Source: Stegostoma tigrinum
Taxonomy: Eukaryota
Assembly: GCF_030684315.1 (NCBI RefSeq)
Contig: NC_081359.1
Location: 72,774,283-72,838,282 of the forward strand
Reading direction: 5' to 3'
DNA length: 64,000 nt
Shown in pieces: positions 7,545 through 54,708 of this stretch. The stretch's first letter is position 1. Every line of letters begins with the position of its first letter. Below the pieces are notes generated by a model. It saw only the letters and a program-made list of their open reading frames with translations, searched no databases and was not told the origin of the DNA. The position numbers and the translations under genes were made by a program.

Positions 7545-7830
7545 CGATCAAGCTGTTCAGAGATGTCATTACACACCTCTGAAACATGTGGAACTTGAAC
7601 TTGGGTGTCTCGGTCTAGGTAAAAACCGATAGAACTGCGGATACTGTAAATCGGGAACAAAGACAAAGTTGCTGGAAAAACTCAGCTGGCCTGAGGAGGG
7701 ATCACCGGACCCGAAGCGTTGACTCTGTTTTTTCCTTCACAGATGCTGCCAGACCTGCTGAGCTTTTCCGGCAACTTTGTTTCCGTCTCTGGGTCTAGGG
7801 GGGGTGACACTACCGCTGCACCGCAAGAGT
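7545..7830 (-). mobile_element. Family X tRNA-derived SINE interrupted by a PLE-derived element
   Basis: Halves 7545-7619 and 7792-7830 join into a SINE (A-box gtgcagcggtag, B-box gttcaagttcc on minus). Confidence 0.65.
7620..7791 (+). mobile_element. PLE-derived short inverted-repeat element with hammerhead core
   Basis: Arms acaaagttgctggaaaaactcagc / gctgagcttttccggcaactttgt; core CTGAGGA(7691)..cccGAAGCGTTgactct; flanking ggtctagg at 7612-7619 and 7792-7799. Confidence 0.75.
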
Positions 7831-9285
7831 CCTAACCGCTAAATTTAATTCGTTCTTCATTTCAACACCATTACGATTAATTAAAGTATCGGTAATCAAG
7901 TTTCACTGTAGTAATTAAAATTTAAAAAACATTTAAATTCTTCATTTTAAAGCTAGATAATCAAGAAGTTTAAATTTTTGTGTTGCATGTACCTCATTAC
8001 CATCAAGTTATGCATTTGAAATCCTGGCAATTCAGCGGACTGAGATGCAGCCTTCCACAGTTGCTTGCGTCAACAGAATACAAATTGCTGAATAAGGAAA
8101 AAATAGCTTATTCAGCTTCACGTGGTATCAACAGGTGCCCAGTACAAAATAGTATCGATTTTACTCATTTAATATTTCTCACATTATGTTTTTGCTTTAG
8201 TGTCATTACTGTCATTTCGTGGAAAGTGTCAACTTTGGTATGAAAAATAAAAGCAAATACTTTACCATTAGCCATGGCACTATAACCTAAACGTATCATC
8301 ATCATCAATGACATTTTACTTATGTAGAAAAATCTGATGCCTGCTAAATAAAAAAGAAAACTCAAGAAACCGCTGCGAAAATAAATGATCAGACTTGTAA
8401 CATCGTAGTTTGCTGTAAATTGTCTCCGTTTCCAAGCCCATTGCAGTCATCAAGGATTGTAGAACAGTGCTTTTAGAAAAGGTAGCCAAATGCAAGGAAG
8501 ATGAAAACTTATCCGGTCAGAGACGGTGTGGGTTGAGTTATTGTGTAATTTGATTTTTTGTTGTTAATGACAGTGTCTTCCTCTGTAAGTTTTGCAGGAA
8601 AACTACGTCTGATGTTTTAAGGGTGAAATCAGAGTTAATTTTAACACAAACCTTGTATTGCTTTATGAGGATGCTGGCTCTCCGATGCGCCGTTTTATAG
8701 CTGCTATTGTTTTCCGAACGTATATTTGAAGTTGATTGGACATTAAGGGAATAAAAATACCACAAAAGTTTGCGCAGAACCGAATTTAACCTCAAAATGT
8801 TGCAGCTCATTTCAATTGTACCGACCTTAATCTGAACCACCGGCTTTGAGTTTCAGAATAAACACACCATGTGAGATCGTCGGGAAAATGCCGAATCTGT
8901 ACAGTCAGCGAAGCCGTTCTTTTCATTCACTAATAAACTTCCTTGCTACAGTTTTACATCCAAACACATATCAACTGCTCAAATGTAACTTTCAGTTTAA
9001 TTCGTATGAAAATAGATACCGAAAATCCTTGTTATGTAAGAAACTCCAAAAAGATCTTTACCACATCCGCCCAACCACAAACCACACACAAACAGCGGGT
9101 GTGTGAAGACTCCCACCTCATCAAAATGTTTCATGATAGCAAATTGTATCATACCTCAAACTAGAGATGACAAAACCAGCTAGCTAGTAACACATCCGGC
9201 TGTCATAGATGCCACATTTTGAATGCGCTGGGGACACGAAACAGACTTGTCTATGTAACCCTCCCCCTCCCCAGCACTGCTGCCA

Positions 9286-9670
9286 GCTTACCCGACACTT
9301 CTGACCGCTGTCAGCCAGCCTATTCAAGCACAATCACTTTCTTCACACATCGATTTCCAAGTCAGTCTTGCATGGAGGAGAAAAGTGACTCAAAGTTCTA
9401 TTAAACCTACAGATAGGACCGCGCGAAGTTCCTGCTCTCCCCTAGCCATCGCCGCTGTCACGTTATGTGAGAACGCATGGCTGCAGCTCCCTTGTCACTA
9501 GACGAAGGGCAACGCCACGCCCCTACCAAAAAGACCCAAGCAAAACTCATCACTCTGGAAGAAGGTAGAGTTATAATCTTTGTAGGTTTATCACTGCACT
9601 TTAAAATAATTAACCAAACTAAAAAGTTACTTTTCATTGTAAATACAATGGAATTCTTCGTGTTTATACA
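9286..9670 (-). promoter_or_regulatory. Candidate gja3 non-coding exon 1 and promoter
   Basis: Donor-like GG|GTAAGC at 9292/9291 within a locally GC/CpG-rich patch (9230-9530); TATAAA on minus at 9663-9668; no transcript evidence. Confidence 0.35.
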
Positions 9671-11289
9671 AACCTGAATTTTTTAAATTCTGAACTTAGT
9701 TGACAAATGAACTAAACTTTCAAACCAGTCTGATCATATACATAATTATATGCTTTAAATTTTAAAATATAGGCTTGCTAGTGTATGACTCTATTGGAAA
9801 GAAGAATTGTTTATTGAATTGATTCGTTATATCGTAAATATTTTTGTAGTCACTCTGAATTTGATCAACCACAAATGGTTACATTCTTCCACATATAGTC
9901 GCTGCCAGTAAAAGAAAAACGTTGAATATAGTTCAACACCATAAAGTCATTATTAAATCTGTCATTTGTTACAAACACATCAGCCCAAGACTATATGTCA
10001 ACTTTGTTGATTTAGTGACTTACTCAGAAGTATTAAGATGTTAACAATCAAAAGGATTGTTAGAAATGTCACAACTGTTTAATGTTAAACAGGTTGTAGC
10101 AGCTGTTTCTAAAATTAATTCTCGGCATTGCCATATAACGTTGCGAAGTTCTATTTCTGATTGACTATATTGCACTCTTCATAATTCCCCGATTACCACC
10201 ATAAGAAATTTGCTTGTTTTACTGAAAGCATAGTTGGTACAAACCTCATTAATTATATCTCTATGCAAGTTATATTCCACTCGTATTATTACTGTTAAAA
10301 GCTGTCAGAATTGTACTTTGTCCATTATCTCACGTATTGTAAAACAATTCGGATAGAGCAAATTCGGTAATAGAAACAACAAACTGTGCTGATTCAAGGC
10401 ACAAATATTTTACACGCTCAATTCCTGCCTTATTTACTACTTTGCCTCAAATCTAATTAAAATTTTGAACGCCATTTTTAAACAAATGAGTAAATCTGCG
10501 TTTCTAAGCATGAAATAAAACCAACCTAGGATGGAGAAAATAGTGTATCTTTAAACATTTACGCTCTTAAAGGAACATCAATATTCCATCATTTAATTTT
10601 TACATCTCTGTTATTTTGATGATTAGCAGCATCTTGCACCATATAAGACTGCATAAGGTAGAGTTATCCAACCCTATGACAATCACTTAGTTCCATTAAG
10701 TACTCACCATTATAATGGTGTCACTGTACATTTTCCAATGTGTGAACAAAATAGGTAAAACTTATAAAAAATGTTTCAATGTCAGCTCAGTGTCTGGATC
10801 CATTATCTAGTGTGGCATTGAACAATATATTTTGAAGATTTCAGCTTTGATCCTTACCCTGTGCGGAGTAAACTTTTCTTAACTGGTATGGTGGTGAGGG
10901 ACTGCAATTGGTTTGGATATTACTTCATTAGGGAGGTCAGGAACTGAGTCAGATATCCTACTCTTGCTTCCTATACAGAAACTCCATTGTGATGTCCCTT
11001 TTTAGAAAAGAAATCACTATTCTCACTTACATATGGTAAATATTTGGGGAGTGTGCCAGAGAATAATATTGTTTCATTGCATATTGGTGTGAAACTAATG
11101 ATAGGTTCAGTTCTCTTTCTCAGCCCTGTCTGAATTCTTTGTTCATTCACCGTAAAACTGCAATTTCCATTGAGACACTATTTTTAATGTAGAAAACTAA
11201 GGCACTTCTCCCAGCAATGGAGTGAATAATGAACAGGATGTTAGAATCAGTTGAACAGAGTGTGTGGATTACAGAATTTGAACAGTGGT

Positions 11290-12750: not shown

Positions 12751-13893
12751 AGATGGAAAAACCAAATTCAGACTTTTCAACAAAGACAGGACTTTAACTG
12801 TGAGCGCTGGGGTCCTTTAACCAATGCAGATAAGTGAAACCAAATGTAGTCCCAAATGGATCTTTGTGCTATATAAGATGTAAGCCATATATGTTTGAAT
12901 GAAATCATGGAGAGAAGAAGATGGAAGCCAATGAGGAATGCTTTGAACAGCTATTTCTGGAGATGATAGAATACATAATTGAACCTGGCAGCTGTAGACT
13001 GGTTCTTGTGGTATTTGTGGCTAGAAGGATGCAGCTACCATTCTCCGTTCCCTGACTATGTGGCTTACTGTGCTGGATTTAATAAGAAGATGCCCATCTC
13101 AGCAAAATTAGTTTTTTGCATGATACTAATTAGGTACAAGTTACATTAACTAGATACACATTCTTACTAAGACTATGGGGAAACATAAATAATGCATCAA
13201 GCCTCTTTAAGATTTAGAGCTCTTTTCCCTGTTTCTCTCCCCAAGATTGTATGATGTGATCAGATTGAATGGAACTTAATGCAGTCTGCAACACTAATCC
13301 TCACAAAACCATTATCTTACATACATTTCTACTTTGAAAGAAGGCTGGTGTTGTTACAGAGAAGAGGTAGGTAGTTTGTTTTTGTGATGAAGAGTGTAAG
13401 GAATTTGCTTAAAGTCAAAAAGGCCAACAAGGCACTGAAGAGTCTTTTGTCCAAGACAATGGCTGAGAAGGTGGATGGAACTGATCATATGTTTTAGTAG
13501 GAATTGTGTATTTAGTTAGCTGAATTTATGACTCAGAAATGATTGGATGTCAACACATGGTCTGGCAACACAGAAACAGTGGAGGGATTGAGAAATTTAG
13601 AGCCTTATATCATTGGTATATATGTGGAAGCTGACATCACATTGGCGCAGGATGTGATGTGACTGAATGGAAGCAGGAGGATAGCTCCTTGGTGACAGCA
13701 GGTGGTAGTGGATAGGTTCGAAGAAATGTCATTGATAAGGATAAACAAAACCAAAGCACTGAGGAGGCAGGAAATCAGAAAGAAAAACAAAAATTACTGG
13801 AAAAACTCAGCAGGTCCAGCAGAATCTGTTTGCTTCACGTATGAGAGCTGGTGGGATCAATGCCCACATTCTCCAGTTGGGCTCTGTGGTGGT

Positions 13894-13967
13894 GGTTGCT
13901 TAGCTCAGCTGGTAAGAACATGGTGATAATAGCGCCAAGGTCACGGGTTCAATCCCCATATTACCCA
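13894..13967 (+). pseudogene. tRNA-Ile(AAT) pseudogene or SINE head
   Basis: ttagctcagctggtaagaacatggtgatAATagcgccaaggtcacgggttcaatcccc closely matches vertebrate tRNA-Ile-AAT; acceptor stem broken, CpG-type transitions. Confidence 0.75.
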
Positions 13968-14094
13968 AGTCTGTACATGTCTGGCCACAAGTTTAATGCC
14001 TTGTGTTTTGGCTGAAAGCTTGCATTGCGGTCTCTACTTTTCCCTTCACTGTCTGCATGCAACTGAGATATGTCATAGGAAATTTTTGTGCAAA

Positions 14095-14178
14095 TCCTGT
14101 GGTGCAGTGGTAATGCCCCTGCCTCTGAACCAAGAGGTGCAGGTTCAAATCTCACCTACTCCAGAGAGGTGTCACAAG
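14095..14178 (+). mobile_element. Family X tRNA-derived SINE
   Basis: tgtggtgcagtggtaatgcccctgcctctgaacc..ggttcaaatctcacct..ccagagaggtgtca. Confidence 0.6.
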
Positions 14179-14183
14179 ATTAG

Positions 14184-14505
14184 GGGCGGCACAGTGGCCC
14201 AGTGGCTAGCATGACTGCCTCACAGTGCCAGGGGCCCACTCTCGGGTGACTGTTTGTGTGGAGCTTGTATATTCTGCATGGGTCTCCTCTGGGTGCTCTG
14301 GTTTCCTCTCACAGTCCAAAGATGTGCAGGTTAGTTGGATTTGCCAAATTTCCCATGAGTCCAGGGGCATGTAAATTAGGTGGTTTAGACATGGGAAATG
14401 CAGGATTGCAGGGAAAGGGTTGGGGATGGCTCTGGGTGGAATGTTCTTCGGGATAGCAGAGCAAATCTGCTGGGCTGAATGGCCTGTAGGGATTCTATGC
14501 CATTT
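14184..14505 (+). mobile_element. HE1-like V-SINE
   Basis: gggcggcacagtggcccagtggctagc head; V-domain ggtttcctctcacagtccaaagatgtgcaggttag; CR1-like tail gggctgaatggcctgtagggattctatg. Confidence 0.85.
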
Positions 14506-14649
14506 TATGAAAAGAAACAGAGTTAATGTTTCAGGTTCAAAGAGCCTCTTCAGAACTGACTGTGCCTGGGAAAGGGTTGGTATATATGCTGGAGATGGTG
14601 GGGAGTGAGGAATGGTGAGGGGTGAAGAGGTAAAGGATAGATGGAGCCT

Positions 14650-14650
<1 letters not shown>

Positions 14651-14690
<40 letters not shown>
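14651..14690. repeat. (GA)n microsatellite
   Basis: About 20 GA units with one interruption. Confidence 0.9.
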
Positions 14691-15159
14691 AAACATACGG
14701 GCGGACAAAGGAATGTGTAAAGGTCAGACTGGGAGAATCAATAGTTGCTAATGTGGACCATTAGTGGCTAACAATGGGTTGTGTCTGATGGCAGCCCATG
14801 TGATGATAAGAACTGGTGTCTGGGGGCCTGAGTAAGGGAGAAGATGTTCAAGTCCTAAAAGTGTTGAACTCAATATTTTGACTGCAGAAGTCTGCAGGGT
14901 TCCCAAATGGAATATGAGATGCTCTTCTAGTTTGCACTGAGCATTGCTGGAGCACTGTAACAAGCCAGAGACAGAGGTTTTGGCCAGGGAGCATAGTGGT
15001 GTGTTGAAATGGCGGGCAACTGGAAGCTCAGGGTCATTTTTGTGGACAGAATGTAGGTGCTCTGTAAAGCAGTCATCCCATCTCCCCTTCATCTCCCTGT
15101 ATAGAGACCACAGTGTGAACAGTGAATAGAATAGACTACATTGAGTGAAGTGAATCTGG

Positions 15160-15946
15160 ATTAATGTGAGGTATTGCATTTAGGTACAACAAACAAGGGG
15201 GGGGCTTACACAATTAATGGTAGGGTCTTGGGTAAAGTTTGTAGAACTGAGGGACCTAGGGGAGCAGTTACATACTTCCTTAAAGTTTGCATCACATACA
15301 GACAGGATGGTTAAAAAGGTGTTTGTCACGCTTGCCTTCATTACTCAGTCCTTTGAGTACAGGAGTGGGGAAGTCGTGTTGAGGTTGTACAGGACATTGG
15401 TGAGACCTCTTCTGGAATGTTGTGTACAGTGCTGGTCACTCAGTTATAGGAAGAATGTTATCAAGCTGGAGAGGGTTCAGAAGAGATTTACCGGGATGTT
15501 GCCAGGTGTGGAAGTTTAACTTATAAGGAAAGGCTGGATAGGCTGGGACTTTTTTCACTGGAGCGTAGGAAGTTAAGAGGTGACTTGATAGAAGGTTAAG
15601 AATAATGAGAGGTATAGATAGAGTTGATGGATGTTGTCTTTTCCCTAAAATGGGGAATTTGAAGACATTTTTAAGGTGAGAGGAGAGAGATTTAAAAAAA
15701 AAGACATAACAGGCAAATCTTTTACCCAGAAGGTGGTTTGCATGTGGAATGAACTTTCTGATGAAATGGTGGATGTGGGTTCAATCACAATGTTTAAAAG
15801 ACATTTGGATGGATATGTGAATAGGAAAGGTTTGGAGGGACATGGGCGAGGAGCAGGCAGGTGGGACTTGTTTTGTTTGGGATTATGTTCGGCATGGACT
15901 GGTTAGACCAAAGGGTCTGTTTCCATGCTGTATTACTCTATGACTG
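15160..15946 (+). mobile_element. 5'-truncated CR1/HER1 LINE inserted into the PLE
   Basis: LYRTLVRPLLECCVQCWS..KLERVQKRFTGMLPG; FTQKVVCMWNEL; tail ctgtattactctatgact; PLE endonuclease frame continues on both sides. Confidence 0.9.
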
Positions 15947-16360
15947 TATGTGCAGGTCAGTCACTGCTTCACCTGGATGATGTGTCTGGGGCCTTGGATA
16001 GTGAGGAGGGAGGAAGTAAGCGGGCAGTTATTACACTTTCTGCTATTGCATGGGGGGTGCCGTGGCAGTGTGGAGAGATATTGGGAGTTGAGGATGAATG
16101 GACCAAGGTGTCTGGGAGGGAACAATCCCTGTGAAAGGCTGAGAAGGAAGGGAGGAGAATATGTGTCTGGTGGTGATAAAGATGGTCTGATCAGGATAGG
16201 TAGAAATCAAAGCAATCAAAGATGATCAAGGAGCTGAACAAAGAATAGTGTCAGAGGATAACCATATGATCGACTGTATTAAAGCGCTCAGAGAGATCAC
16301 GGAGGATAAAAAGGGATAGCTTAGCATGCTGACACTTCAACAATGTTGTTTTTGAAAGAC

Positions 16361-16675: not shown

Positions 16676-16724
16676 TACTGTGTTTGTGGCATGAGTTTAG
16701 GATGTTTTGGTAACAATAGATGTA

Positions 16725-18970: not shown

Positions 18971-19204
18971 GATAGATGTTACCATGAAATCCCCTCTAGG
19001 CCTGGCCCTTGCTAAGATCTTCATTGGATTCTGTTAGAATCATATCCTTAATTGTATGACCACTAACCAACTACCCCACATATTTCTGATATGTGGATGG
19101 TATGCTTGCCATATTTAAATCAACAACTGCAAGGATTTATTTTAATTACTCCTTAATAGACCTGGAGTCTGTTTTGTGGAGCACCTGCACTCAGTATGTG
19201 ATAA

Positions 19205-19660
19205 CAACACCACCTTACGTCACCAACCATTTTAATTTCCCTTCCCACTCCCAGGGAAGGCATGCCCCTCCTAGCCTCCTCTATCACCCCAATGACACCA
19301 CACACAAACTGGAAGAGTACACAGAGGACACCTCGCATTATGATTCATAAGCCCACAAGCATTCACCAGTTTTAAAATCTCCCCACTCTCAGCCTCATCC
19401 ATGTCCAACTGTCCTTATCATTCCCACTCCTCCCACCTATCCACACCACCCATCCCACTGACCGAGCCCACCTGCATTCACCTAATCTCTCTTCTGTCTT
19501 TCATTTTCCCAGCTCCCTCCCCCCGCTTCCCATTTCCTGAATAAGGGTTCCGACCTGAAATGTCAGCTTTCCTGCTCCTATGATGTTGCCTAGTCTGCTG
19601 TGTTCCTTTAACTCCACACTGCATTGTTTCTTACAAGAACTGCAGATGCTAGTGTTATCT
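19205..19660 (+). mobile_element. Penelope-like element 3' fragment
   Basis: VTNHFNFPSHS, C-rich 3' region, decayed hammerhead CTGAATA(19537)agggttccgacctGAAATGTCagcttt and tail homologous to 37055-37720. Confidence 0.75.
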
Positions 19661-19989: not shown

Positions 19990-21570
19990 TCCATTATAAA
20001 AAGTAATGAAGGTAGAGGTAGCTGGAGAAAAGTTTAGCAGCATTGATGGGATAAACAATGGTATATTTAAAAAGGCTCAAGGCATCCCAGCGAGAAAAGT
20101 TCTAGGAAGGGATGAACTGGTCAAGAGTGATGAACTGGTCAAGAGTAACCAAGTTAGTTAAGAATAGGATTGATATTGAAAGAAAGAACGAACAAACAAA
20201 ACAAAAAGCCAGCAGATTAGTGAAGTTTTGATCCCAAAAAAGGGAAAAAAAAACAAAAAGGGAAGTAAAATGCCAGTAAACGTAGGTTTTTAAAAAAAAA
20301 GTTCAGATAGGCCCTTCAGAGAACAAGGCGAAGAGGAAATAATTGGGATCCAGGAAGTGGCAGAAGAATTGCATAAGTACTTTCCATCAGCAGATACTAA
20401 TAGCACTCCAAAATTGCTAACTTGTCAAGGAGCAAAAAGGGAAAGGAAATGCAATAACTATTAGAGGAAATGTTAGGGAAGCTAAGTGGACCTGAAGGAC
20501 CAATAAGCCTCCATTCTGAGGGTCACCAGACCAGAAACATTAACTGATTTTCACAGATGCTACCAGATCTTACCAGATCTGTGGAGCTTTTCCAGCAGTT
20601 TCGTTTTTGTTTGAAAAGTTTCCAGACATGACTGGATGCACCCTAGGCTATGAAAGGAATTAGCTACCAGGTTAATGGATGCTTTGGCAGTAGAGTTTAA
20701 AAAGTCCTTCAATTTGGAAAATGTCCCAAATAATTATAAACCAACTACACAACCCCTTTATTTTAGTAAAGAGGGAAAGAGCTTAGACTTTTGGTTTACT
20801 ATTAAAAAGATGAAATAGCAGAACATGTCGAAACCTACATGAGCAAGCAGAATCAGTATGATCAAGGGGAGAAGGAGAATGAAGCGGAGCTCATTTATTC
20901 CTGTTTCTTACTGCTGCAAGAACAGTATGGATATAAAGGAAAAGAAAATGCAAGTAAAATATTTGGATTTACAGGTAGTGTTTGATAAGGCACCATGTTA
21001 AGCTAATTAGTGACTGAAAATTCAGAACAAAAGTTATGTTAGCATCAATAGAAGATTGTTGATTAGAGCTAAGATAGGGAGCATTTTCAGGATAGCAACC
21101 TATAGCTAGGGGAGTACCTGTGGAATGCATGCTAGGATCAACATTTTTCCAATGCATTAAATAACTTTAATGAGGAACGTGAGTACTCTAGCCAAGTTTA
21201 AAAGAGATGGGATAGACTATTTGGTAATTAGATGAATATTTGGTACATTAAGTGAGGTAAAAAAGGAGATATATTTGGCAGTAAGAATGCAATGAATGCT
21301 ATTTAAAAAATGGAGATGCAGAAATCAGGAGACCTCATCCAGGATGGTTGTAAAGCTAATACACAAATTCAGGTATTAGGGAAGATGAATGGAATATTAA
21401 AATGAATATTGAAATAAAGGCCAAATGGAATTGCATTTGAGTAGCAAGGTCTTACTAAAAGAAAAACAAACAAACTACACAAGGCCTTGAATTACATTTG
21501 TAATACTCAGTTGGGGGTCCCCTTAACCAAGGAGGTGGACACAGGCATTAGAAGCAGTCCAGACAACATT
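19990..21570 (+). mobile_element. Highly degenerate CR1 LINE
   Basis: Remnants ttggatttacaggtagtgtttgataaggcacca (DF..FDKAP), ggagtacctgtggaatgcatgctagg (GVP..MLG) and ttagaagcagtccagac. Confidence 0.6.
20513..20612 (+). mobile_element. PLE-terminus-derived short element
   Basis: ttCTGAGggtcaccagaccaGAAACATTaactg..cacagatgctaccaga..gagcttttccagcagtttcgtttttgttt. Confidence 0.7.
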
Positions 21571-22150: not shown

Positions 22151-22310
22151 CCCACTTCACACAAAAAGGGGGAATTTATACTCAACCACAAAAACCTGTA
22201 TGTTTATTCAGAAATTGAAATCAATTTCTTCCACTTTTAAATACAGTGACAGACCAATAGCATGAAGGTTGCTGGGCAGAATGAGATCAGAACATTATGC
22301 ATTTGCAACT

Positions 22311-22438
22311 CAGATAATGGGAACTGCAGATGCTGGAGAATCCAACATAACAAAGTGGTTGAACATAGCAGGCCAAGCAGCATCTCAGATCCTGATATGC
22401 TGCTTGACTTGCTGTGTTCATCCAGCTTCACTTTGTTA
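22311..22438. mobile_element. PLE-terminus-derived mini palindrome (family A)
   Basis: tgaacatagcaggccaagcagcatctcag / ctgatatgctgcttgacttgctgtgttca inverted arms; atgcatttgc on both flanks. Confidence 0.75.
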
Positions 22439-24203
22439 GCATGCATTTGCTGTTGTTCGCTTAAGACACATGGGGTGTACTTTCACCTACTGACCAGAAG
22501 ATGGCAGCCTGCACCATCACCAGTCACAGGTTGGGGAAACTGGCAATAAGATAGCTCAATGAGCTTCTTTCAGACATCAGTACCATGTCACTGGAGTCCA
22601 AGAAACAAACATCCCGAATACTGCTTCTTCGAACTCACTGGAGAACACTAGAGCAAAAATATTGCTTTCAAAGCTAGATAGTAATCCACGAGCACTAAGC
22701 CTCATGAAACTAGTTTGTACTGACAATTGCATTTTGTTAAAAGGGAAATTTAAATTTGTTACAGGGTGCAAGTTTAGATTTTTAATAAGTGCTCCAAATT
22801 CTACCAAAGTGAGAAGCATAGTGCCAAAACCTCAAAAGGTCATTGATAGAGGTAGCAGGTTTAAAAAAGTTAAATGCAGAGAGTAATTGCAGTGGGAAAG
22901 ACAAAACAGGGGTAAAACTTTAAAAAAGTGCAGGAAGGAGCAGAGGGGCCTGGGGGTGCATGTACACAAAAAAAAACCGAAGAATTATGCTATAGATGCA
23001 AGAAAGGTTGCATTCATCTTAACAAGATGAGAGTTTGGCTTCAGGAATAAGAGGTACCCTAGTTCAGGCGCTGAATTTCAATGCCTTGATGACCATGTAG
23101 ACAAATTGTGTTCTGATAAGGCATGGGCTTTAAGAGGCCTTTAAACACCACCTCATTAAAAACCTAGATTATATAGCTGCTACACTTGAACAACATCTTC
23201 AGCTTTTTCTTTTAAAGAAAAAAAAACTTATTCTAGTAGGAACAAGTTAATGGACATAGACTCTGGGATCTGAGTTTAACTTTTAAAGTCACCAGGAATT
23301 TATGAAGCTTGCCCTCTGCTTTTGCCTAGAGTTGCATTCAGGTTAGCCTACAGCAGTCTAATTTGCATTGGGGCTGCTTAGTCATTTTTAATTACTTCAC
23401 TTGCTTTGTTCAAAAAGCATTACATATTCAATAATGCTAGTAACTGTCCACCAGAAACAGTACTATGTTACTGTAATTAGTAGCAGCTCAAGTAACTTGG
23501 GCTCTTGATCTTAGAATTCTCCGGCTCTAGTTCCAACAACATCCTGGAAGGCATTCTGAGCTCCTGTTAAGTGCAGTACTTACCAACAGCCTTCTGGGAA
23601 AAGGGTAATGGCAGTTATTTTAATGGTATCTAATCCCCACAAAACCTTTGCATCCCTGTCTGGTTGTGTATTTTCCCCCCCAATAAAGGTTGAAACAGGT
23701 TTTCCCAATTTGTATTCACACTATGGACAGGACACAAACACAAGACAGCTTCAGAAAGCTTTTAGCTAGAGGAATTATACAGGTGGGAAATAGTTTGCTT
23801 TTAAAGCATGGGCCTCAAGTGCAAGTTATACAAGTCTGGCCCTAGGGGCTGATTGATTCCAAGCTAGAGTGGTGTTCCCATACACTTCCTTCAGCTGTTG
23901 GAGGGAAGGGGGTGTGGAGAAAAAGGGAGTGAGTAAGTTAGTTAAAAATAAGTCAATCCTGGAACTCCAGGAGCACCAAGACTGTAGTTTAGTGGGTTTC
24001 TCATTCATTAGAATGAAAGAAGAAACCCTAGATACCAAAACTTCCTGGGCCATACGTGATGAGGCAGCTAATCTTTCTGGAAAGAAAAAAGCAAGCAAAC
24101 GTCAGTTATTTCTACTGCAATTAAGAAGTTGCCATCCTTGGTCAACAGGGATCCAACGACCAACTAAGCACAGTGAGGTAATCAGGGCAGTGAGGAGTAC
24201 AAG

Positions 24204-24290
24204 AGATAATGGGAACTGCAGATGCTGGAGATTCCAAGATAATAAAATGTGAGGCTGGATGAACACAGCAGGCCAAGCAGCATCTCAGGA
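24204..24290 (-). mobile_element. Young truncated PLE terminus (family A)
   Basis: Near-identical to the 54489 element; TSD aggagtacaag at 24193-24203 and 24287-24297. Confidence 0.85.
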
Positions 24291-24337
24291 GTACAAGTCC
24301 GAATTTGTTTGAGAATGAAGTCATCAAGAGACCATGC

Positions 24338-24470
24338 AAAAAGCAAAGAAGTAGCTGGAAAAGCTCACCAGGGCTGACAGCATCTGTGGAGATTTCCAAA
24401 AAAAAAAATCAGTTCACGTTAACTGCTTCTCTCCACAGATGCTGCCAGACCCGATGAGCTTTTCCAGCCT
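24338..24470. mobile_element. PLE-terminus-derived mini palindrome (family B)
   Basis: gctggaaaagctca..cagcatctgtggaga / tctccacagatgctg..tgagcttttccagc. Confidence 0.7.
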
Positions 24471-24590
24471 TCGCCGTTCAGCTTTCAGAAAGAATGTTCT
24501 GAAGGTTGATTACTTCAGAGACACAACTGCAAGTGATTTATTTAGGGTTAGAAATATCCTCACCGACGACATGCAATACTATTAAACGAT

Positions 24591-25088: not shown

Positions 25089-25877
25089 TCAGGATGTTTT
25101 GTTCAGCTCCATGGCCATCTTGTGTTTGGCGTCAACGGACAGGAGTTCGTTCATTTCGTTTTGTTGGTGCTCTCTGCTCCTGGAGACGTGGTGGGGGTGG
25201 TGCGTGCGGCGGGACTGCCTCACACAAGCTTTCACCAACAAATAGAACAGCTCGGCCACATTCAGGAGGCCGCAGACCCCGGACACCACCGTCATGAAGA
25301 TGATGAACACAGTCTTCTCGGTGGGTCTAGAAATGAAGCAGTCCACGGTATTGGGACAGGGGGAGGCGCTACACTTCACCAGCCGGGCCATCTGAAAGCC
25401 ACCGTAGAGGAAGTACAGCATGTAAGTGAAAACCGTCTCGAACAGGATGCGAAAGATGATGCTGGTGACATAGGTCCACCAGAAAGCACCAACAATCCGC
25501 ATTTTCTGCTTCCTCAGGGCATCCACTTCCTCCTGCTTCAGGAAGCCCTGCCGTTTCTCCATGCATTTCTTCTCTTCGTGCTGTTTATAGGCAACGTGCA
25601 GCGACACCAGGAGGGCAGGGGTGGAGATAAAGATCACTTGCAGACACCAGAGTCGGATGTGAGACATAGGGAAAAACTGATCATAGCACACGTTCTTGCA
25701 GCCGGGCTGCAGAGTATTGCAGACAAAATCGGACTGCTCGTCTCCCCAGACACTCTCGGCCGCTACCACCAGAATCATGATTCTGAAAACGAAGATCACA
25801 GACAGCCAGATTTTCCCGATGCTAGTGGAGTGTCTGTTGACGCCTCCCAGGATCAGGTGCAGTTGTCCCCAGTTCAT
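25089..25877 (-). CDS. gjb2: Gap junction beta protein, Cx26/Cx30 (GJB2/GJB6) type, 262 aa
   Basis: [57 protein letters not shown]; C-tail QNEMNELLS as in Cx30; synteny with gja3. Symbol is best read as a gjb2/gjb6 co-orthologue. Confidence 0.9.
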
Positions 25878-25896
25878 CTCTCGAACTCAGTCAGAC

Positions 25897-27714: not shown

Positions 27715-28002
27715 ATTTGGATAGGTACATGAATAGGAAAGGTTTAAAGGAATATGGCTCAATAAAAGTTGCAGCTGAATGGGGCTCTCTGATGAAGGGT
27801 CTAGGCCTGAAACGTCAGCTTTTGTGCTCTTGAGATGCTGCTTGGCATGCTGTGTTCATCCAGCTCCACACTTTGTTATCTTGGATTCTCCAGCATCTGC
27901 AGTTCCCATTATGACTGGTAAATGGGACTTGTTTAGTTTGGGAAACTTGGTCAGCATAGTTAAGTTGGACCAAAGGATCTGTATTTTTGCTGTCTGACTC
28001 TA
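27715..28002 (+). mobile_element. CR1 3' end interrupted by a hammerhead-bearing family A element (about 27785-27912)
   Basis: CR1 tail ttggataggtacatgaataggaaagg..ggaccaaaggatctgt..gactcta; insert CTGATGA(27789)agggtctaggcctGAAACGTCagcttt..gcagttcccattat. Confidence 0.8.
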
Positions 28003-29639: not shown

Positions 29640-30200
29640 ACATTGTCAATACAGTGCGGAGCTGGAGGAAAACTGCAGGTCAGGTAGCATCAGTGGAGCA
29701 GGAGGGGGCCTGCACCCTTCATCAGGACTAAGGAGTGGGAAGGGAGGAGGGATGGGGCTGGTGGAAGGTAGGTGGGAAGGCAATAGGTGGATGTAGGTGA
29801 GGTAGTGGGATTTGGTCAGTGGGAAGAGTGGGTCAGATAGATGGGGAAGAGGATGGACAGGTAGTGTTGGGTCCAGGAGGCGGGGATAAGAGCAAAACTG
29901 GTGAATTCTATGTTCAGTCTGTCAGGCTAGAATATGAGGTGTTGTTCCTCCAGTTTGCGTGTGGTATCATTGTGATGCTGGAGGACGCCCAGGATGCCAT
30001 GTCACCAAGGGACTGAGAGGGGGAGTTAAAATGGTTAGTGACTAGAAGGTGTTGTCATTTGTTGTCTACAGAGCGCAGATGTTGTACAAAATGGTCCCCG
30101 AGTCTACGCTTGGCCACGTCAGGAACAGCAGATACAGTAGACCAGGTTGGAGGATGTACAAGTGAACACCTGTCAGAAATGGAACGTTTGTCTTGGGCTT
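29640..30200 (-). mobile_element. Penelope-like element 3' fragment
   Basis: KRRLGDHFVQHLRSVDNK; terminal repeat gcggagctggaggaaaactgcaggtcagg..cccttcatcag. Confidence 0.8.
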
Positions 30201-30774: not shown

Positions 30775-31290
30775 TGTCGACATCTGTAGAGAGAGAAACA
30801 CAGTCATGTTTGAAGTTCAGTCTGACTGTTCTTCAGAACTGTTGACAGAGAGGGAAGAGTGAGTGCAACAGATGGTGAGGGTGCCCAGAGCAAAAGACAA
30901 AGAGAGAAGGTATAATAGGAGCAGGAAAGCTGGTGTTTTGGGTCAGGACCGTTCTTCATGAGGGTCCCGACCCAAAACATCAGCTTTCCTGCTCCTCTGA
31001 TGCTGCCTGGTCTGCTGTATTCCTCCAGCTGCACGCTGTGTTATCTCTGACTCCAGCATTGGCAGTTCTTACTATCTCTCAGGTACAATGTGCATGTTTT
31101 ATATCTGTTTATCTCCTTTACCTCCACTATTATCACTCTTTTTATCTTTGGCTATGGGCACCATCATCATCTGTTCCACTTACTCCTCCTCCCCTTTGTC
31201 AACTGCTTAAGCATAACTTTCAAGCCCCCTTCAGTTATGATCTGACTTCAAATGTTCACACATGCTGCCAGACCTGCTGAGTTTCTGAGT
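30775..31290. mobile_element. Nested PLE-derived palindromes
   Basis: Outer arms ~30840-30905 / 31140-31205; inner insert 30917-31080 with arms aggagcaggaaagctggtgttttgggtc / gacccaaaacatcagctttcctgctcct and TSD aggtataat/aggtacaat. Confidence 0.75.
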
Positions 31291-35843: not shown

Positions 35844-35982
35844 CTAGTTCTGAGCAAGTGTCACCAGAGCCGAAATGTTAACTCTGTTTTCTTCTCCACA
35901 GATGCTGCCAGACCAACTGGGCTTTTCCAGCAACTTTGTTTTTGTTCCTGATTTACAGCATCCGCACTTTTGGTTTTAATTT
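35844..35982 (+). mobile_element. Family B short element beginning at the hammerhead stem I
   Basis: TSD tgcataggat at 35834-35843 and 35983-35992; agttCTGAGCA..ccGAAATGTTaact. Confidence 0.85.
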
Positions 35983-36141
35983 TGCATAGGATTCATGGTG
36001 ACTTATCTATGTAGATTCAGTCTTGGCTTGGCCATAGAAGGCTGCAGGTAGTGGTGGAAGGTTGTTTTTCAGGCTGGAGTTCCCTGACTAGTGGTGTTCT
36101 GCAGGGATCTGTACTAGGATGTGATATATGTAAATGACTTG

Positions 36142-36560
36142 CGAGTTTTGAGAAGATTTGTAGCTCAGGTTGAGGTTCCGGATGTGAGTTTGCCCGCTGA
36201 GCTGGAAGGTTAGTTTTCAGACGTTTTGTCACCATTCCAGGTAACATCATCAGTGAGCCTCCGATGAAGCGCTGGTGTTATGTCCCGCTTTCTATTTATC
36301 TGTTTAGGTTTCCTTGGATTGGTGATGTCATTGCCTGCGTTGGTGATGTCATTTCCTGTTCTTTTTCTCAGAGGATGGTAGATTGGCTCCAAATTAATGT
36401 GTTTGTTGATGGAGTTCCGGTTGGAATGCCATGCTTCTAGGAATTCCTAAACAGATAAATAGAAAGCGGGACATAACACCAGCGCTTCATCGGAGGCTCA
36501 CTGATGATGTTACCTAGAATGGTGACGAAACGTCTGAAAACTAACCTTCCAGCTCAGTGA
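36142..36560 (-). mobile_element. Young Penelope-like 3' fragment with inverted terminal repeat
   Basis: TSD gtaaatgacttg at 36130-36141 and 36561-36572; arms 36197-36308 / 36446-36558; minus-strand EFLEAWHSNRNSINKHINLEPIYHPL (PLE endonuclease C-terminus). Confidence 0.9.
36498..36537 (+). ncRNA. Minimal type-I hammerhead ribozyme motif
   Basis: tca CTGATGA t gttacc-tagaat-ggtgac GAAA C GTC tga: intact core, 6-bp stem II, palindromic AC/GT stem III, GUC cleavage triplet. Confidence 0.75.
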
Positions 36561-37054
36561 GTAAATGACTTGGATGAAAATCTAGTTGGTTGGGTTAGTA
36601 AATTTACAGATGATACTAAGATCAATGGAGTTGTGGATAGTGTCAAAGGTTGCAATGAGATATAAATCAGTTGCAGAAGTGGGCAGAGAAATGGCAGATA
36701 AAGTTTAATCTATGTAAGTGTGAGGTGCTGCACTTCGGGAGATCAAATTTTAAGGAAAAGTATACAGTTAATGGCATGACTCTGAACAACATTGATTTAC
36801 AGAAGGATCTTGGGCTTCAAGTCCACAGCTCCCTGAAAGTGGCCACACAAGTAGATAGGGAGGTAAAGAAGGCATATGGCATGCTTGCCTTTATTGGTCA
36901 GGGAATTGAGTACAAGAATCAGGATGTCATGTTGCAGCTTTATAAAACTTTGGTTCGGTCACACTTAGAGTAATGCATTCAGTTTTGATCGTCACATTAC
37001 AGGAAGAATGTGAAGGCTTTGAAGAGGGTGCTGAAGAGGTTTACCAGGATGATG

Positions 37055-37720
37055 AGATAGTAGGAACTGCCAATGCTAGAGAATCTGCGATAACAAGGTA
37101 TAGAGGTGGATGAACACAGCAGGCCAAGCAGCATCAGAGGAGCAGGAAAACTGACATTTCAGTTTGAGACCCTTCTTCAGAAATGGGGGAGGGGAAGGAC
37201 ATTCTGAAATAAATAGGGAGAAAGGGGGAGGTGGATAGAAGATGGATAAAGGAGAAGATAGGTGGAGAGGAGACAGACTGATAAAGGAGGCAGGGTTGGA
37301 GCCAGTAAAGATGAGTGTAGGTGGGGAGTTAGGGAGGGGATAGGTCAGTCCAGGGAGGACGGACAGGTCAAGGAGGTGGGATGAGGCCAGTAGGTAGGAG
37401 ATGGGGGTGGGGCCTGAGGTGGGAGGACAGTTTAGGGAGGCAGGTATGAGCTGGGCTGATTTTGGGATGTGGTTGGGGGAGGGGAGATTTTGAAGCGTGT
37501 GAAGTTCACATTGATACCATTGGGCTGCAGGGCTGCAGCGAAATATGAGATGCTGTTCCTGCAACCTTTGGGTGGCATTGTTGTGGCACTGCAGGAGGCC
37601 CAGGATGGACATGTCATCTAAGGAGTGGGAGGGGGAGTTGAAATGGTTCGCGACTGGGAGGTGCAGTTGTTTGTTGCAAACCGAGCGGAGGTGTTCCACA
37701 AAGTGGTCCCCCAGCCTTGC
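37055..37720 (-). mobile_element. Penelope-like element 3' region (endonuclease plus family A terminus)
   Basis: EHLRSVCNKQLHLPVANHFNSPSHSLDDMSILGLLQC..QEQHLIFR; downstream CTGAAGAagggtctcaaactGAAATGTCagt (37150-37182) and the family A tail. Confidence 0.9.
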
Positions 37721-37998
37721 TTGGAGGGTATTGTATTTAAGTTGGGGGGGAAGTTCAAAGGAGATGTGAGGGGCACATTTTTCACACAGAGAATCATAGG
37801 AGTGTGGAATGCGCTGTCAGATGTGGTGGTGGAGGTAGATATGATAGGGGCATTTAAGAGACTTTTAGATAGCACATGAATATGCAAGGAATGGAAGGAT
37901 ATGGACCAAGGGCAGGTTGAAGGGATTAGTTCAATTTAGCGTCATGTTTGGCATAACATTGTGGGCCAAAGGGCCCATTCTTGTGCTGTACAGTTCTA

Positions 37999-38228
37999 CA
38001 TAAAAACTGAAAGAACTGCGGATGCTGTAAATCAGGAACAAAAACAAAGTTGCTGGAGAAGCTCAGCAGGTGTGGCAAAGAAAACATAGCGTTAATGTTT
38101 TGGCTCCAGTGACCCTTTCTCAGAATGGTTCTGAGGAAGGGTCATCGGGCCCGAAAAGTTAACTCTGTTTCTTCTTTCACAGATGCGGCCAACCCTGCTG
38201 AGTTTTTCCAGCAACTTTGCTTTTGTTC
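37999..38228. mobile_element. Family B palindromic element inserted in the CR1 tail
   Basis: TSD ctgtacagttcta at 37986-37998 and 38229-38241; symmetry centre ctcagaa-tgg-ttctgag just 5' of CTGAGGA(38131). Confidence 0.88.
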
Positions 38229-43664: not shown

Positions 43665-43768
43665 TGTGTTCTGATGAAAGATCAGTAGATCAGAAATGTT
43701 AATTCTGATTTCTCTTCATAAATATTGGCAAACCTATTGAGATTTTCCAGCAATTACTGTTTTTACTT
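43665..43768 (+). mobile_element. Family B short element beginning at the hammerhead core
   Basis: gtgttCTGATGA(43671)aagatcagtagatcaGAAATGTTaattct..gagattttccagcaattactgttttt. Confidence 0.7.
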
Positions 43769-43819
43769 CTTAACTAATTAATTGTATCTAGAGGACACTT
43801 GTAAAATCACGTACATAAG

Positions 43820-46849: not shown

Positions 46850-46935
46850 GAGATAACAAGGTGTCGAGCTGGATGAACACAGCAGGCCAAGCAGCATCAG
46901 AGGAGCAGGAAGGCTGACGTTTCGGGCCTAGACCC
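46850..46935 (-). mobile_element. Young family A PLE-terminus fragment
   Basis: gataacaaggtgtcgagctggatgaacacagcaggccaagc..gctgacgtttcgggcctagaccc; ends inside hammerhead stem II. Confidence 0.85.
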
Positions 46936-47935: not shown

Positions 47936-48189
47936 GATGAAACTATTCATGCACTTTCCACATGCACTTTGCTGACCACGTTTCAGTAAGGGTATCAGTA
48001 TTGCTGCCATATTAATTTACTCTTAATATGGATCACTAGACAATAAAAATAATAAATAACAATTACTTATCAACTTCAGCTACCTGCATATTGACATTCA
48101 CAGTTTTCCAGAAGGTATAGTTTCTACAGTGAACACTGGGTTAATAACAGTTCTCAGATTTCTTTCCAATGTGCCTCTTTTGTAAAAAG

Positions 48190-49787
48190 GTAAAATAATG
48201 CTGATGCTGGAAATCTGAAGAATGCTGGAGAAACTCAGCTTGTCTGGCAGCAACTATGGAGAGAGAAACAGACTTAACATTTTGAGATTGGTATGATTCT
48301 TCTTCAGAACTGAAAGGTGTTGGAACATTTTTTAAAAACTTTTGACAGAGGCAGAAGCCCAGTCCCAGTGCAAAAGACAAAGGCCTTTTGGTAGAAAAAG
48401 ACAAATGAATTGTAAAATGGTATAAATAAAGATACGAAAGGGAGAGAATTGGCCCTCTCTACTAAGTGCAAAGTAAACAATTCACAAATAAGATGAAGCT
48501 GGGGTGCTGGGTGGTGGTGGAGAGAGGGGAGGGAGAATGTAAGAAAAATGGATAACAGGCATAATATGGTCAATTTTTGAAGTTAGGTGTTGTTCTTTGA
48601 GCTTGCATGTGCTTGTTTGGAATATTGCAGAAGACCCAGAACAGAAACTTTAGCATGAGGTCTAAGGTAGCTTATTAAAATGACAAGCAACTGGGAAATA
48701 ATTCCCACCCACAAAGTGGTGTTCTCCTAGTGATCACCAGATTGTGTTTGGTCTCGCCAGTGTAAAGGAGATCTCATTGTGAGTACTGAAAGCAGTTGAT
48801 TAGATCGAAAGCAGTAACAAATGAAACGTTGCTTCACCTGAAAGATGTATTTGGGGCCATGAATACTGAGGAGGAAGGAGGTGAATGACAAGCATTATAC
48901 CTTCTGGATTGCATGAGGGTACCGGGGGCAGTGAGCAAGTGTCAGGAGCAATGGAGGAGTGAAGCAGGGTGTCACAGAGGGAATGGACCCAACTTCTATT
49001 GCACAGTGGCTAACGGTTAGCACTGCTGTCTCACAGTGCCAGGGTCTCAGGTTTGATTCCAGCCTTGGGGAATTGTCTCGTGTGGAATTTGCATATTCTC
49101 CCCATGCCTGCGTGGGTTTCCTCTGTTTGCTCCTGTTTGCTTCCACAGTCTAAAAATGTGCAGGTTAGGTGGATTGACTATGGTAAATTTCCCCATAGTG
49201 TTCAGGGATATGCAGGCTAGGTCGGCTGACTATGGTAAATGTGGGGCTATGGGGACAGGGTGGGATCCTGTCCAGAGAGTCGGTGCAGATTTGATGGGCC
49301 TAATGACCTCTCTCTGCACTGTAGAGATTCAATATTGTAGGAATGACTCTGACCTTCCAGCTCCTTGTCCTTCCAATAAACCAGCTTGTTGTCGTGCTAA
49401 CATTTCTGCCCTGAGCCTGTTGCAATGCTCCAATAACTTGGGGAGCAAACTTCATTTTCAACTTTGGCATTTTACAGCCTTGGGGTCTCAAAATTGAATT
49501 CAGTAACTTCAGAAACTGTCCATTCTCCATTTTTCTTACATTCCACCCCAAGCCGCACAGTCTTTTCCTGTCTGTGTCTTGTTTACTTTCCATGTTTTAA
49601 GAGGATCAATTATCTCCCTTTCAAACGTAAATTAATAACCATTTTACTTTTCATTTATTCTTTCTCCAAAATCAAGAATCCTTTTATCTTCTGCATTGGG
49701 ACCTCCACCTCTGTCAGAAGTATATAAGAAAATTTCTAACATTTTACTGGTTTGAGAAAAGAGTCAAACCAGATTCAAAATGATAAC
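48190..49787. mobile_element. Old PLE with large inverted duplication
   Basis: 48280-48700 and 49340-49787 are inverted homologues (ttttgacagaggcagaagcccagtcccagtgcaaaagacaaagg / cttttatcttctgcattgggacctccacctctgtcagaa); V-SINE near the centre. Confidence 0.7.
49001..49332 (+). mobile_element. HE1-like V-SINE
   Basis: gcacagtggctaacggttagcactgctgtctcacagtgccaggg..gtggaatttgcatattctcccc..gcaggttaggtggattg. Confidence 0.85.
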
Positions 49788-49901
49788 AAATAACTAAGAG
49801 TTCTGAAGAAGGGTCACTGGACCCAAAACATTGACTCTGCTTTAACTCCACAGATGCTGCCAGAACTGCTGAGTCTTTCCTGCAATTTATGTCTTTGTTT
49901 G
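49788..49901 (+). mobile_element. Family B short element with decayed hammerhead
   Basis: agagttCTGAAGA(49803)agggtcactggacccAAAACATTgactct; flanks aaatgataac / aaatgttaac. Confidence 0.75.
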
Positions 49902-52149: not shown

Positions 52150-52935
52150 CACCTCAGTGTTCTGCATCCACCCTCTCTGCCTCCTCCTCATTCTCATCAT
52201 GCTCCTCCTGTCCCCCTGATGAGATGTCCCTTCCAGAGACTCACCATCCTCAACGTGCATACCTCTCTGGACGGCCATGTTATGGAGAGGGTCAAAGACC
52301 ACCAAATGAGCAAGAACCTTTCAGGAGGAGATTGCAGGACCTCACTTGACTGGTGCAGGCACCAAAACTGCATCTTGAGAAACCTGAAGGCCTACTCAAT
52401 GGCAGTCCTAGTATTGAATTATGTCTGTGCCTCTGTTTGGGACTTCTCTTCAAGTAATCTCCCTGGGTCCCTAGGATACATTCATGCTGTTTGGAATGAA
52501 GACCTGCAGAAGCCTGAATTGGCAAGGATGAAGGAGACCTGGGAGCTGTCAGGAAGGTGACTGTACATGGGGGGAATGCCTTGCTGTGGTTCCAGACAGT
52601 TGAACTTTGAGGGAATGGAAGTCCTTTACATTAATTAATCTGACTAGGCAGTCACTCAGTGCCTCGACGGCTACATGAAGATAATTGATAACGCTCTTGC
52701 GCCAAGGGGATTCCGGTGATGGTGGCAAAACCATCAGACTATGTCTGTCTGGAATTGAAATTGCTGTTGTGTCGGAAAATAGGGTATCTTTGACATTTGT
52801 GGTGAAGTGCTGGATTAGTCTTCGTAAAATGCCAGAAATGCCCATAATTGATCCTTGGAAAAGCCAGAAGTGAAGACATTCAAGGCCATAGAGACTTTGA
52901 TAGCTTCTGGTGGGATATGTGACCAATGCTGAGAA
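52150..52935 (-). mobile_element. PIF/Harbinger transposase remnant
   Basis: VINYLHVAVEA..LINVKDFHSLKVQL; TRTAIE*AFRFLKMQFWCL; LHNMAVQRG followed by an acidic tract. Confidence 0.7.
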
Positions 52936-52974
52936 ATGCAAGGATTTCAGGAATTAAGTCACCAATATCCAACA

Positions 52975-54347
52975 TTTTATAGACCAGTGAGCCTTACCTC
53001 AGTTGTTGGTAAAGTGTTGGAAAAGGTTATAAGGGATAGGATTTATAATCATCTAGAAAAGAATAAATTGATTAGGGATAGTCAGCACGGTTTTGTGAAG
53101 GGAAGGTTGTGCCTCACAAACCTTACTGAGTTCTTTGAGAAGGTGACCAAACAGGTAGATGAGAGTAAACCGGTTGATGTGCTGTATATGGATTTCAGCA
53201 AGGCGTTCGATAAGGTTCCCCACAATAGGCTATTGTACAAAATGTGGAGGAATGGAATTGTGGGAGATATAGCAGTTTGGATCGGAAATTGGCTTGCTGA
53301 AAGAAGACAGAGGGTGGTAGTTGATGGGAAATGTTCATCCTGGAGACCAGATACTAGTGGTGTACCGCAAAGGTCGGTGTTGGGTCCACTGCTGTTTGTC
53401 ATTTTTATCAATGACCTGGATGAGGGCGTAGAAGGATGGGTTAGTAAATTTGCAGATGACACTAAGGTCGGTGGAGTTGTGGATAGTGATGAAGGATGCT
53501 GTAGATTGCAGAGAGACATAGATAAGCTGCAGAGCTGGGCTGAGAGGTGGCAAATGGAGTTTAATGCAGACAAGTGAGAGGTGATGGACTTTGGTAGGAG
53601 TAACCGGAAGGAAAAGTACAGGGCTAATGGTAAGATTCTTAGTAGTGTAGATGAGCAGAGAGATCTCGGTGTCCATGTACACAGATCCTTGAAAGTTTCC
53701 ACCCAGGTTGACAGGGCTGTTAAGAAGGCATACAGTGTTTTAGCTTTTATTAATAGAGGGATCGAGTTCCGGAACCAAGAGGTTATGGTGAAGCTGTACA
53801 AAACTCTGGTGTGGCCGCACTTGGAGTATTGTGTACAGTTCTGGTCACCGCATTATAAGAAGGATGTGGAAGCTTTGAAAAGGGTGCAGAGGAGATTTAC
53901 TAGGATGTTGCCTGGTATGGAGGGAAGGTCTTACAAGGAAAGGCTGAGGGACTTGAGGCTGTTTTCATTAGAGAGAAGGTAGAGAGGTGACTTAATTGAA
54001 ACATATAAAATAATCAGAGGGTTAGATAGGGTGGATAGGGAGAGCCATTTTCCTAGGATGGTTACGGCGAGCACGAAGGGGCATAGCTTTAAATTGAGGG
54101 GTGAAAGATATAGGACAGATGTCGGAGGTGGTTTCTTTACTCAGAGAGTAGTAAGGGAGTGGAACGCTTTGCCTGCAACGGTAGTGGATTCGCCAACTTT
54201 AGGTACGTTTAAGTTGTCATTGGATAAGCATATGGACGTACATGGAATAGTGTAGGTTAGATGGGCTTGAGATCGGTATGACAGGTCGGCACAACATCGA
54301 GGGCCGAAGGGCCTGTACTGTGCTGTAATGTTCTATGTTCTATGTTC
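52975..54347 (+). mobile_element. Young 5'-truncated CR1/HER1 LINE with near-intact RT
   Basis: [46 protein letters not shown]; in-frame TGA at 53575 and a break near 53980; (TTCTATG)n tail. Confidence 0.95.
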
Positions 54348-54488
54348 ATTTGCCCTAAGAGTCAGGGTCCTCCAGCCCTGGTTCTAGGCTATCTCCAGTT
54401 TATTCTATCTTAGACAGTAGGTCAGAGGCGGGTCCTTGCTATTCCCTGATCCTCTCCCAGAATGAAACCTAACTTGATAGATCATATG

Positions 54489-54708
54489 ATAATAAAATGT
54501 GAGGCTGGATGAACACAGCAGGCCAAGCAGCATCTCAGGAGCACAAAAGCTGACGTTTCGGGCCTAGACCCTTCATCATCTCTGATGAAGGGTCTAGGCC
54601 CGAAACGTCAGCTTTTGTGCTCCTGAGATGCTGCTTGGCCTGCTGTGTTCATCCAGCCTCACATTTTATTATCTTGGAATTCTCCAGCATCTGCAGTTCC
54701 CATTATCT
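54489..54708. mobile_element. Perfect palindromic family A element
   Basis: 91-nt arms 54488-54578 / 54583-54673 with a tctc spacer; TSD ttgatagatcatatg at 54474-54488 and 54709-54723. Confidence 0.93.
54579..54615 (+). ncRNA. Minimal hammerhead ribozyme core
   Basis: CTGATGA(54582) a gggt-ctag-gccc GAAA C GTC agc; stem I partner weak in this copy. Confidence 0.6.

Follow-up and report, generated by a model that had tools for sequence, protein, structure and literature searches.

Short, hammerhead-bearing stubs are scattered at very high density through the genome of the shark Stegostoma tigrinum, and those in a stretch of 64,000 nucleotides, hereafter the window (contig NC_081359.1, positions 72,774,283 to 72,838,282; G000:C6:72,774,283-72,838,282 in the notation used here), were analysed together with further copies from the same 3.2-Gb genome. 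The stubs were shown to be the same sequence as the ends of Penelope-like elements (PLEs) that encode a reverse transcriptase (RT) and a GIY-YIG endonuclease. They form target site duplications (TSDs) on insertion, stop at two alternative 3' ends, carry one tail per inverted pair and pile up at one 5' position. Judged from these DNA junctions, they are probably dead ends of PLE insertion, arising when a capped RNA that starts at position -4 is used for twin priming at its 5' tail copy. Positions are numbered from the C of CUGANGA as 0, which places the predicted cleavage site 5' of +28 in family A.

The stub copies continue upstream into a reading frame in which RT (YIDD) and GIY-YIG-type motifs were read in the translations. 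The frame of 894 amino acids gave weak Pfam hits to RVT_1 (E=5e-5) and GIY-YIG (E=0.0035), neither of which reaches the cut-off, and between RT and endonuclease, before the latter, it carries a C-x4-C-x2-C linker. A Cys-rich linker is the criterion for Neptune, and Nematis has it too (PMC8557442). Family A is accordingly termed Neptune-type in a provisional sense, by that linker criterion and not by a tree. A natural full-length copy bears two hammerheads 3,528 nt apart, with an ATG at +166. Endonuclease-positive PLEs are known for a pseudo-long terminal repeat (pseudo-LTR), an inverted 5'-truncated copy and an optional tail of 30-40 bp (PMC8557442, PMC3846280), and the pseudo-LTR, inverted 5'-truncated copy, tail and TSD were all observed here. 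Copies were counted by exact pattern searches with 31-mers, whose reversed controls gave 0. The core 31-mer of family A had 89,060 genomic matches, 54,256 of them preceded by the upstream 8 bases of the element body, and the downstream 31-mer had 244,301.

Stub ends and the insertion cycle

The 5' ends were read from the first 100 plus-strand matches of a downstream anchor that does not require the hammerhead; the full set of 211 anchored arms also includes arms picked via the core 31-mer. Among the 100 arms, 65 begin at -6 to +45 (43 with an inverted partner and 22 solo), one at -9, none at -10 to -50 and 34 further upstream, and over the 211 arms the mode is -4/-5. Most family B copies start, by eye, at the same offset as family A, though the upstream sequence of family B has no C-run. 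The -4 base fits the polypyrimidine or canonical initiator consensus in both families. Among junctions that the other arm does not template, a G precedes the start in 15 of 20 cases at -4 and in 2 of 20 at -5/-6 (Fisher p=7e-5, with part of the sample hand-picked from a junction list), and such an extra G is what a cap-copied base would leave. Start sites within the terminal repeat have been located in PLEs before (PMC2377424). A literature search, with subscription journals outside its reach, found neither an untemplated G nor a 5' pile-up for PLE stubs.

At the other end the 211 arms are bimodal, stopping at about +90-97 or at about +125-135, the longer form including the PLE tail. Head-to-head pairings numbered 45, or 41 after removal of partners running into the open reading frame (ORF) and retention of the nearest partner. 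Exactly one arm is tailed in 40 of the 41 pairs, which comprise 29 short-short, 2 mixed and 10 long-long combinations (p=5e-7 against independent arms); a diagnostic base agrees between the arms in 39 of 41, and the stub TSDs are mostly 10-15 bp. One-ended tails and inverted truncated copies have been described for PLEs (PMC8557442, PMC3846280). In vitro, the anole PLE extends both target strands with RT starting at two internal sites that bound the tail, the RNA downstream of these sites being required and the hammerhead dispensable (PMC11167929). The one-tail-per-pair pattern and the bimodal 3' ends parallel these two tail-bounding start sites.

These junctions suggest the following cycle. 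Transcription of a partial-tandem element would begin at an initiator with -4 as its first base. The RT-endonuclease, likely as a dimer, would make a staggered cut, with each strand priming a cDNA at a different one of the two tail sites. If this takes place at the 5' tail copy, both cDNAs would run off the RNA 5' end after about 100-135 nt; their head-to-head joining would yield single-tailed palindromes, or solo stubs if one arm is lost. Priming at the 3' tail copy would give the ordinary long 5'-truncated copies. The stubs would be dead after insertion and then decay; they are likely made afresh at each insertion rather than multiplying themselves.

Several points weigh against this cycle. 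The start site and the cap are deduced from DNA junctions only, a TSD or a microhomology may account for some of the 15 G cases (e.g., L245 and L247), and starts at -5 and -6, which lack the G, are also common. Since the two terminal repeats are identical, the copy that templated a given stub cannot be read from it. Family A being Neptune-type, the Poseidon element studied in vitro is a parallel from another type of PLE, and most of the sampled arms lie in the initial 3 Mb of a single contig. Moreover, older haplotypes are more often short (16 short/2 long in one haplotype against 38/49 in the youngest; mean mismatches 3.9 in the older and 1.9 in the youngest), a skew that might stem from long copies having been lost or from short ones having been re-mobilised to some extent. 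Six internally deleted, two-ended derivatives (G000:C1:829332, 1359947, 2230724, 2439413, 2569888 and 2873520) fuse the 5' region of the element (to +202..+340) with its 3' end (-2..-164). Deleted non-autonomous templates could be behind them, as could circular templates or jumps between templates. The deletion is common to both arms in two of the six, indicating that deleted templates were copied at least once, and some trans-mobilisation of deleted templates is therefore likely. As a separate observation, about +202 is joined to -2 in the insertion L028 and to +28 in the independent insertion L199, which hints that an RNA 3' end or a jump site lies near +202.

The same structures might instead derive from long mRNAs that were primed at their 3' repeat and inserted as ordinary 5'-truncated copies, with RT stalling at the hammerhead hairpin or at the pyrimidine tract immediately upstream and the second arm made by fold-back self-priming, which is regarded as unlikely. 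A family A monomer is indeed predicted to prefer an inactive hairpin spanning 0 to +29 over the hammerhead fold (-11.4 versus -3.6 kcal/mol), but a stall would be expected at the 3' base of that hairpin, not 4 nt beyond its 5' base. The equal offset of family B without a C-run and the specificity of the extra G for the -4 start are further evidence against stalling. Fold-back would account for the matched arm lengths and the shared variants, and self-priming was proposed earlier for PLE palindromic junctions (PMC3846280); by itself, however, it leaves the single tailed arm, found on either side, unexplained.

The earlier note on this DNA regarded the solo units as non-autonomous, retrozyme-like elements, and a retrozyme- or short interspersed element (SINE)-like life with own transcription, hammerhead processing and re-insertion in trans by the PLE enzyme was weighed accordingly. 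It would explain the very high copy number, the units' own TSDs, the short-form skew of older haplotypes and the six deleted derivatives, and animal retrozymes, one chondrichthyan case included, have been reported as derived from PLE terminal repeats (10.64898/2026.07.22.740005). The junctions nevertheless make such amplification improbable. Tandem Repeats Finder gave three unrelated rows in the window and no array with a hammerhead per unit; the 5 same-strand neighbour pairs within 1.5 kb among the 211 arms show no uniform unit, and head-to-tail arrangement is limited to a few deletion derivatives and a single direct pair of 59 bp (L098). Unit ends mostly retain an uncleaved core and mostly differ from the cleavage site, at which only 9 of 211 arms start. 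The flanks of solo stubs read as unique, and no two of the six deleted derivatives share a junction.

A master palindrome, the origin expected for a miniature inverted-repeat transposable element, was rejected. One junction form occurs in 264 copies, compared with the 89,060 core matches, and 20 of these copies were sampled. The 18 with both arms carry the tail on one side in 8 cases and on the other in 10, fall into three haplotypes and have distinct TSDs (14-15 bp in 13 of 18). This mixture of tail side, haplotype and TSD indicates that the same junction recurred independently.

The hammerhead and its cleavage

The earlier identification of the motifs as minimal type-I hammerheads from PLE ends, present at very high density, is borne out by the core, by stem covariation and by the genomic counts. 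Subfamily motifs were taken as the column majority over 1.25 Mb of sampled DNA, some types resting on only 1-3 copies. The core CUGANGA / GAAA / UH is present in every one of them and the stems vary between subfamilies; the bulged base before stem II and the G10.1-C11.1 pair are present as well, and the palindromic 15.2-16.2 step is CG in most subfamilies. It is GC in type E, a hammerhead subfamily with its own stem I found at L148:4718-4758 and L100:727-766, where GC replaces CG at the stem III palindrome. An Rfam scan returned 19 matches at E<=10, none of them to a hammerhead family.

Compensatory covariation in stems I and II is present across subfamilies. In an alignment of 12 natural copies, 88% of stem cells are paired compared with 56.8% after shuffling, with 33 double-sided changes and none of 500 shuffles as high, while stem controls slid along the sequence pair at 17-46%. 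The invariant columns of this alignment follow from the descriptor used in choosing the copies (core plus stem II of at least 4 bp). Stem II was thus preselected; stem I was not, and it shows double-sided changes at all four pairs. Helix I has 4 bp in families B, D, E and F, 2-3 bp in C and 2 bp in the youngest form of family A, and a D. virilis hammerhead has been reported with a 2-bp helix I (PMC4209133). The stem I previously read in family B as agagtt/aactct does exist, but by column majority only 4 bp of it come from the element, the outer bases of agagtt at 49803 lying outside it. At two loci, L218 and L223, a family A stub has landed in the hammerhead region of an older, family B-like stub, close to stem III. 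From the sequences, the hammerhead appears to be kept in the parent lineages and would not be needed for making most stubs.

Whether the ribozyme cuts in vivo was approached through the junctions. Among symmetric junctions on 4-base palindromes, 682 lie at the cleavage site (+28), 47 at +23, 272 at +15 and 21 at +55. For asymmetric junctions at +24 to +34, a list of 100 counted by eye holds 20 at +28, flanked by 6 at +27, 3 at +29 and 1 at +30, although +33 and +34 have 16 and 17 of their own. RT stalling at the base of the alternative hairpin (+29/+30) is disfavoured as the cause of the +28 peak, with 4 of the 100 junctions there versus 20 at +28. A script recount of 30 asymmetric junctions placed 6 at +28, all joining element-derived sequence, 4 via microhomology to the other arm and 2 as head-to-tail joins, with no clean solo; accordingly, 0 of the 14 solo-classed arms among the 30 start there. 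In a family B replicate of 15 loci, the cleavage site occurred once and the neighbouring palindrome twice exactly and once mutated, hence without enrichment, though this replicate is weak, given the age of the family and the lack of self-complementarity expected for its cleaved ends.

The +28 peak is therefore suggestive only of hammerhead cleavage in vivo, with microhomology as a confounder. A fuller proposal, in which the stubs are a fossil record of PLE insertion made mostly by twin priming on a single capped RNA whose start lies in hammerhead stem I, with a few percent of the templates cut by the hammerhead in the germline and leaving junctions exactly at the cleavage site, is put forward tentatively, as somewhat doubtful. 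If true, there would be genomic evidence for in vivo cleavage by a PLE minimal hammerhead whose stem I has 2 bp.

Stubs and other features of the window

A hammerhead motif or a decayed form is present at all 11 loci listed earlier. Two of the listed positions, 14519 and 37150, mark the lower-coordinate ends of minus-strand motifs whose starts are 14553 and 37180. The descriptor matched five times in the window (mean 0.2 and maximum 2 in 200 shuffles), at 27789, 38131, 54582, the previously unlisted 36501 and 41506 (-), the last of which looks like chance. Three of the 11 loci pass it, and the remaining eight have core or stem damage. The endonuclease sequence that had been placed upstream of three long loci was recovered as remnants, by tblastn at 37723-37435 (-) and at 16134-15934 plus 15155-14874 (-), and by blastn at 19172-19316, which aligns to the remnants at 37702-37593 and 30091-29946. 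Pfam gave no GIY-YIG match on two endonuclease remnants of the window.

The description of the ORF-less loci as solo units with TSDs of 8-15 bp held in part. A TSD of 10-15 bp flanks five of the eight (7691, 35850, 38131, 49803 and 54582), while that at 27789 has only 6 bp and none was found around 20516 or 43671. Three of the supposed solos, 7691, 38131 and 54582, turned out to be head-to-head inverted pairs. The last is a family A (Neptune-type) pair at 54489..54708, with a left arm of about +1..+91 on the minus strand, a tailed right arm of -3..+127 on the plus strand, an intact hammerhead at 54582 (+) and a 15-bp TSD at 54474 and 54709. The other two belong to family B: 7620..7787 has a decayed hammerhead at 7691 (+) and a 12-bp TSD with one mismatch, and 37999..38228 has a hammerhead at 38131 (+) with a broken stem III palindrome and a 13-bp TSD.

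Among the true solos, the tailed family A stub at 27785..27920 (+) starts 4 nt before the core, is preceded by G and combines an intact hammerhead (27789) with its 6-bp TSD remnant. The family B solos comprise a tailed stub at 35846..35982 (+), within a long interspersed element (LINE) fragment, with a decayed core at 35850 and a 10-bp TSD; one at 49799..49901 (+), with a decayed core at 49803 and a 10-bp TSD with one mismatch; a decayed one at 43667..43770 (+); and one at 20512..20615 (+) with a core deletion. The three long loci are a 5'-truncated Neptune-type PLE at 37054..37724 (-), with endonuclease remnant, 3' untranslated region (UTR), decayed hammerhead (37180) and tail; an old 5'-truncated PLE at 19172..19660 (+), with endonuclease remnant, 3' UTR and decayed hammerhead (19537); and the 3' part of a family B PLE at 13747..16180 (-), with its hammerhead at 14553 and a 3' remainder at 13829-13747, interrupted at 15158-15948 by a LINE fragment and at about 13830-14506 by other repeats.

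About nine stubs were added to the earlier list. A Poseidon-type (family C) inverted pair at 36142..36560 bears hammerheads at 36253 (-) and 36501 (+, intact), an ATG at the start of stem II, a tailed left arm and a 12-bp TSD. Family A contributes an older inverted pair at 30917..31080 (9-bp TSD, one mismatch), a pair truncated past the hammerhead at 22307..22440 (arms starting near +40, 10-bp TSD), a tailed solo stub at 24204..24296 (-) starting near +34 with an 11-bp TSD, and a solo stub at 46851..46935 (-) starting near +8. The others are a family B-related (type F) solo stub at 48200..48311 (-), an old PLE 3' fragment at 29648..30196 (-) with endonuclease remnant and a partly deleted hammerhead, and a family B inverted pair at 24340..24490 that lacks most of its hammerhead.

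Apart from PLE sequence, the window contains two intact connexin frames at 3828-5009 (-) and 25089-25886 (-) (Pfam Connexin, E=9e-105 and 1e-90), presumably gap-junction alpha-3-like and beta-like. A LINE RT fragment lies at 52933-53982 (+; RVT_1, E=7e-29), with related pieces at 15158-15948, 32081-33191 and 35568-37054, all of which are assumed here to be CR1-like. Within the interrupted family B element, a tRNA-like sequence at 13894-13967 (+; Rfam tRNA, 30.3 bits) is probably a SINE head. At 55634-56291 (+) there are about five diverged direct repeats of 90-120 bp, akin to repeats at 5914, 7537, 14095 and 38291.

Relation to known systems

The class has been known since 2014, when dispersed single minimal hammerheads (min-HHRs) "probably related to truncated PLEs", with opposite-strand pairs 100-700 bp apart, were described (Cervera and de la Pena 2014, PMC4209133), and the addition here is the scale and the junction statistics. 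Both sets share the type-I core, the bulged base before stem II, G10.1-C11.1 and the palindromic 15.2-16.2 step, and in both the motifs are mostly dispersed singles from truncated PLEs, with opposite-strand pairs and many divergent subfamilies per genome. They differ in that the copy number here is far above the 4,000-9,000 reported for coelacanth and frog, and that helix I of family A has 2 bp instead of the 4-5 bp of those min-HHRs. Two of the three supplementary files of that paper hold no shark entry. A PLE expansion has been reported in the whale shark (10.1101/443036); the literature search found no shark description of these stubs, which the supplements of the 2026 preprint (10.64898/2026.07.22.740005) may list, and neither twin priming in PLEs nor a junction peak at the cleavage site.

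Random 5' truncation, inverted 5' copies, one-ended tails, TSDs, solo terminal repeats and a start site inside the terminal repeat are common to the stubs and to published insertions of endonuclease-positive PLEs (PMC8557442, PMC3846280, PMC2377424). Unlike in those reports, about two thirds of the arms here pile up at one 5' position beside the hammerhead, the one-tail-per-pair rule was counted and an extra G marks the start. In PAc, the Poseidon element of Anolis carolinensis (Frangieh et al. 2024, PMC11167929), the ATG lies where stem II begins, an arrangement shared with family C of the window but not with the Neptune-type family A, whose ATG is at +166. RNA-seq of PAc showed no ends at the cleavage site, in contrast to the modest peak among the junctions here. 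With more than 200,000 arms, the poorly understood PLE insertion cycle becomes open to counted tests of the RNA start, the inverted pairs, the origin of the tail and cutting in vivo.

Non-LTR retrozymes (PMC7229834, 10.64898/2026.07.22.740005) resemble the units described here in being short, non-coding and dispersed as monomers, with a type-I hammerhead and kinship to PLE terminal repeats. In fish-like genomes, dispersed hammerhead monomers should nevertheless not be taken for retrozymes by default, since retrozymes are defined by head-to-tail tandems with a hammerhead per unit and by circular RNA, whereas the units in this shark, either solo or paired head-to-head, terminate at the tail sites of PLEs.

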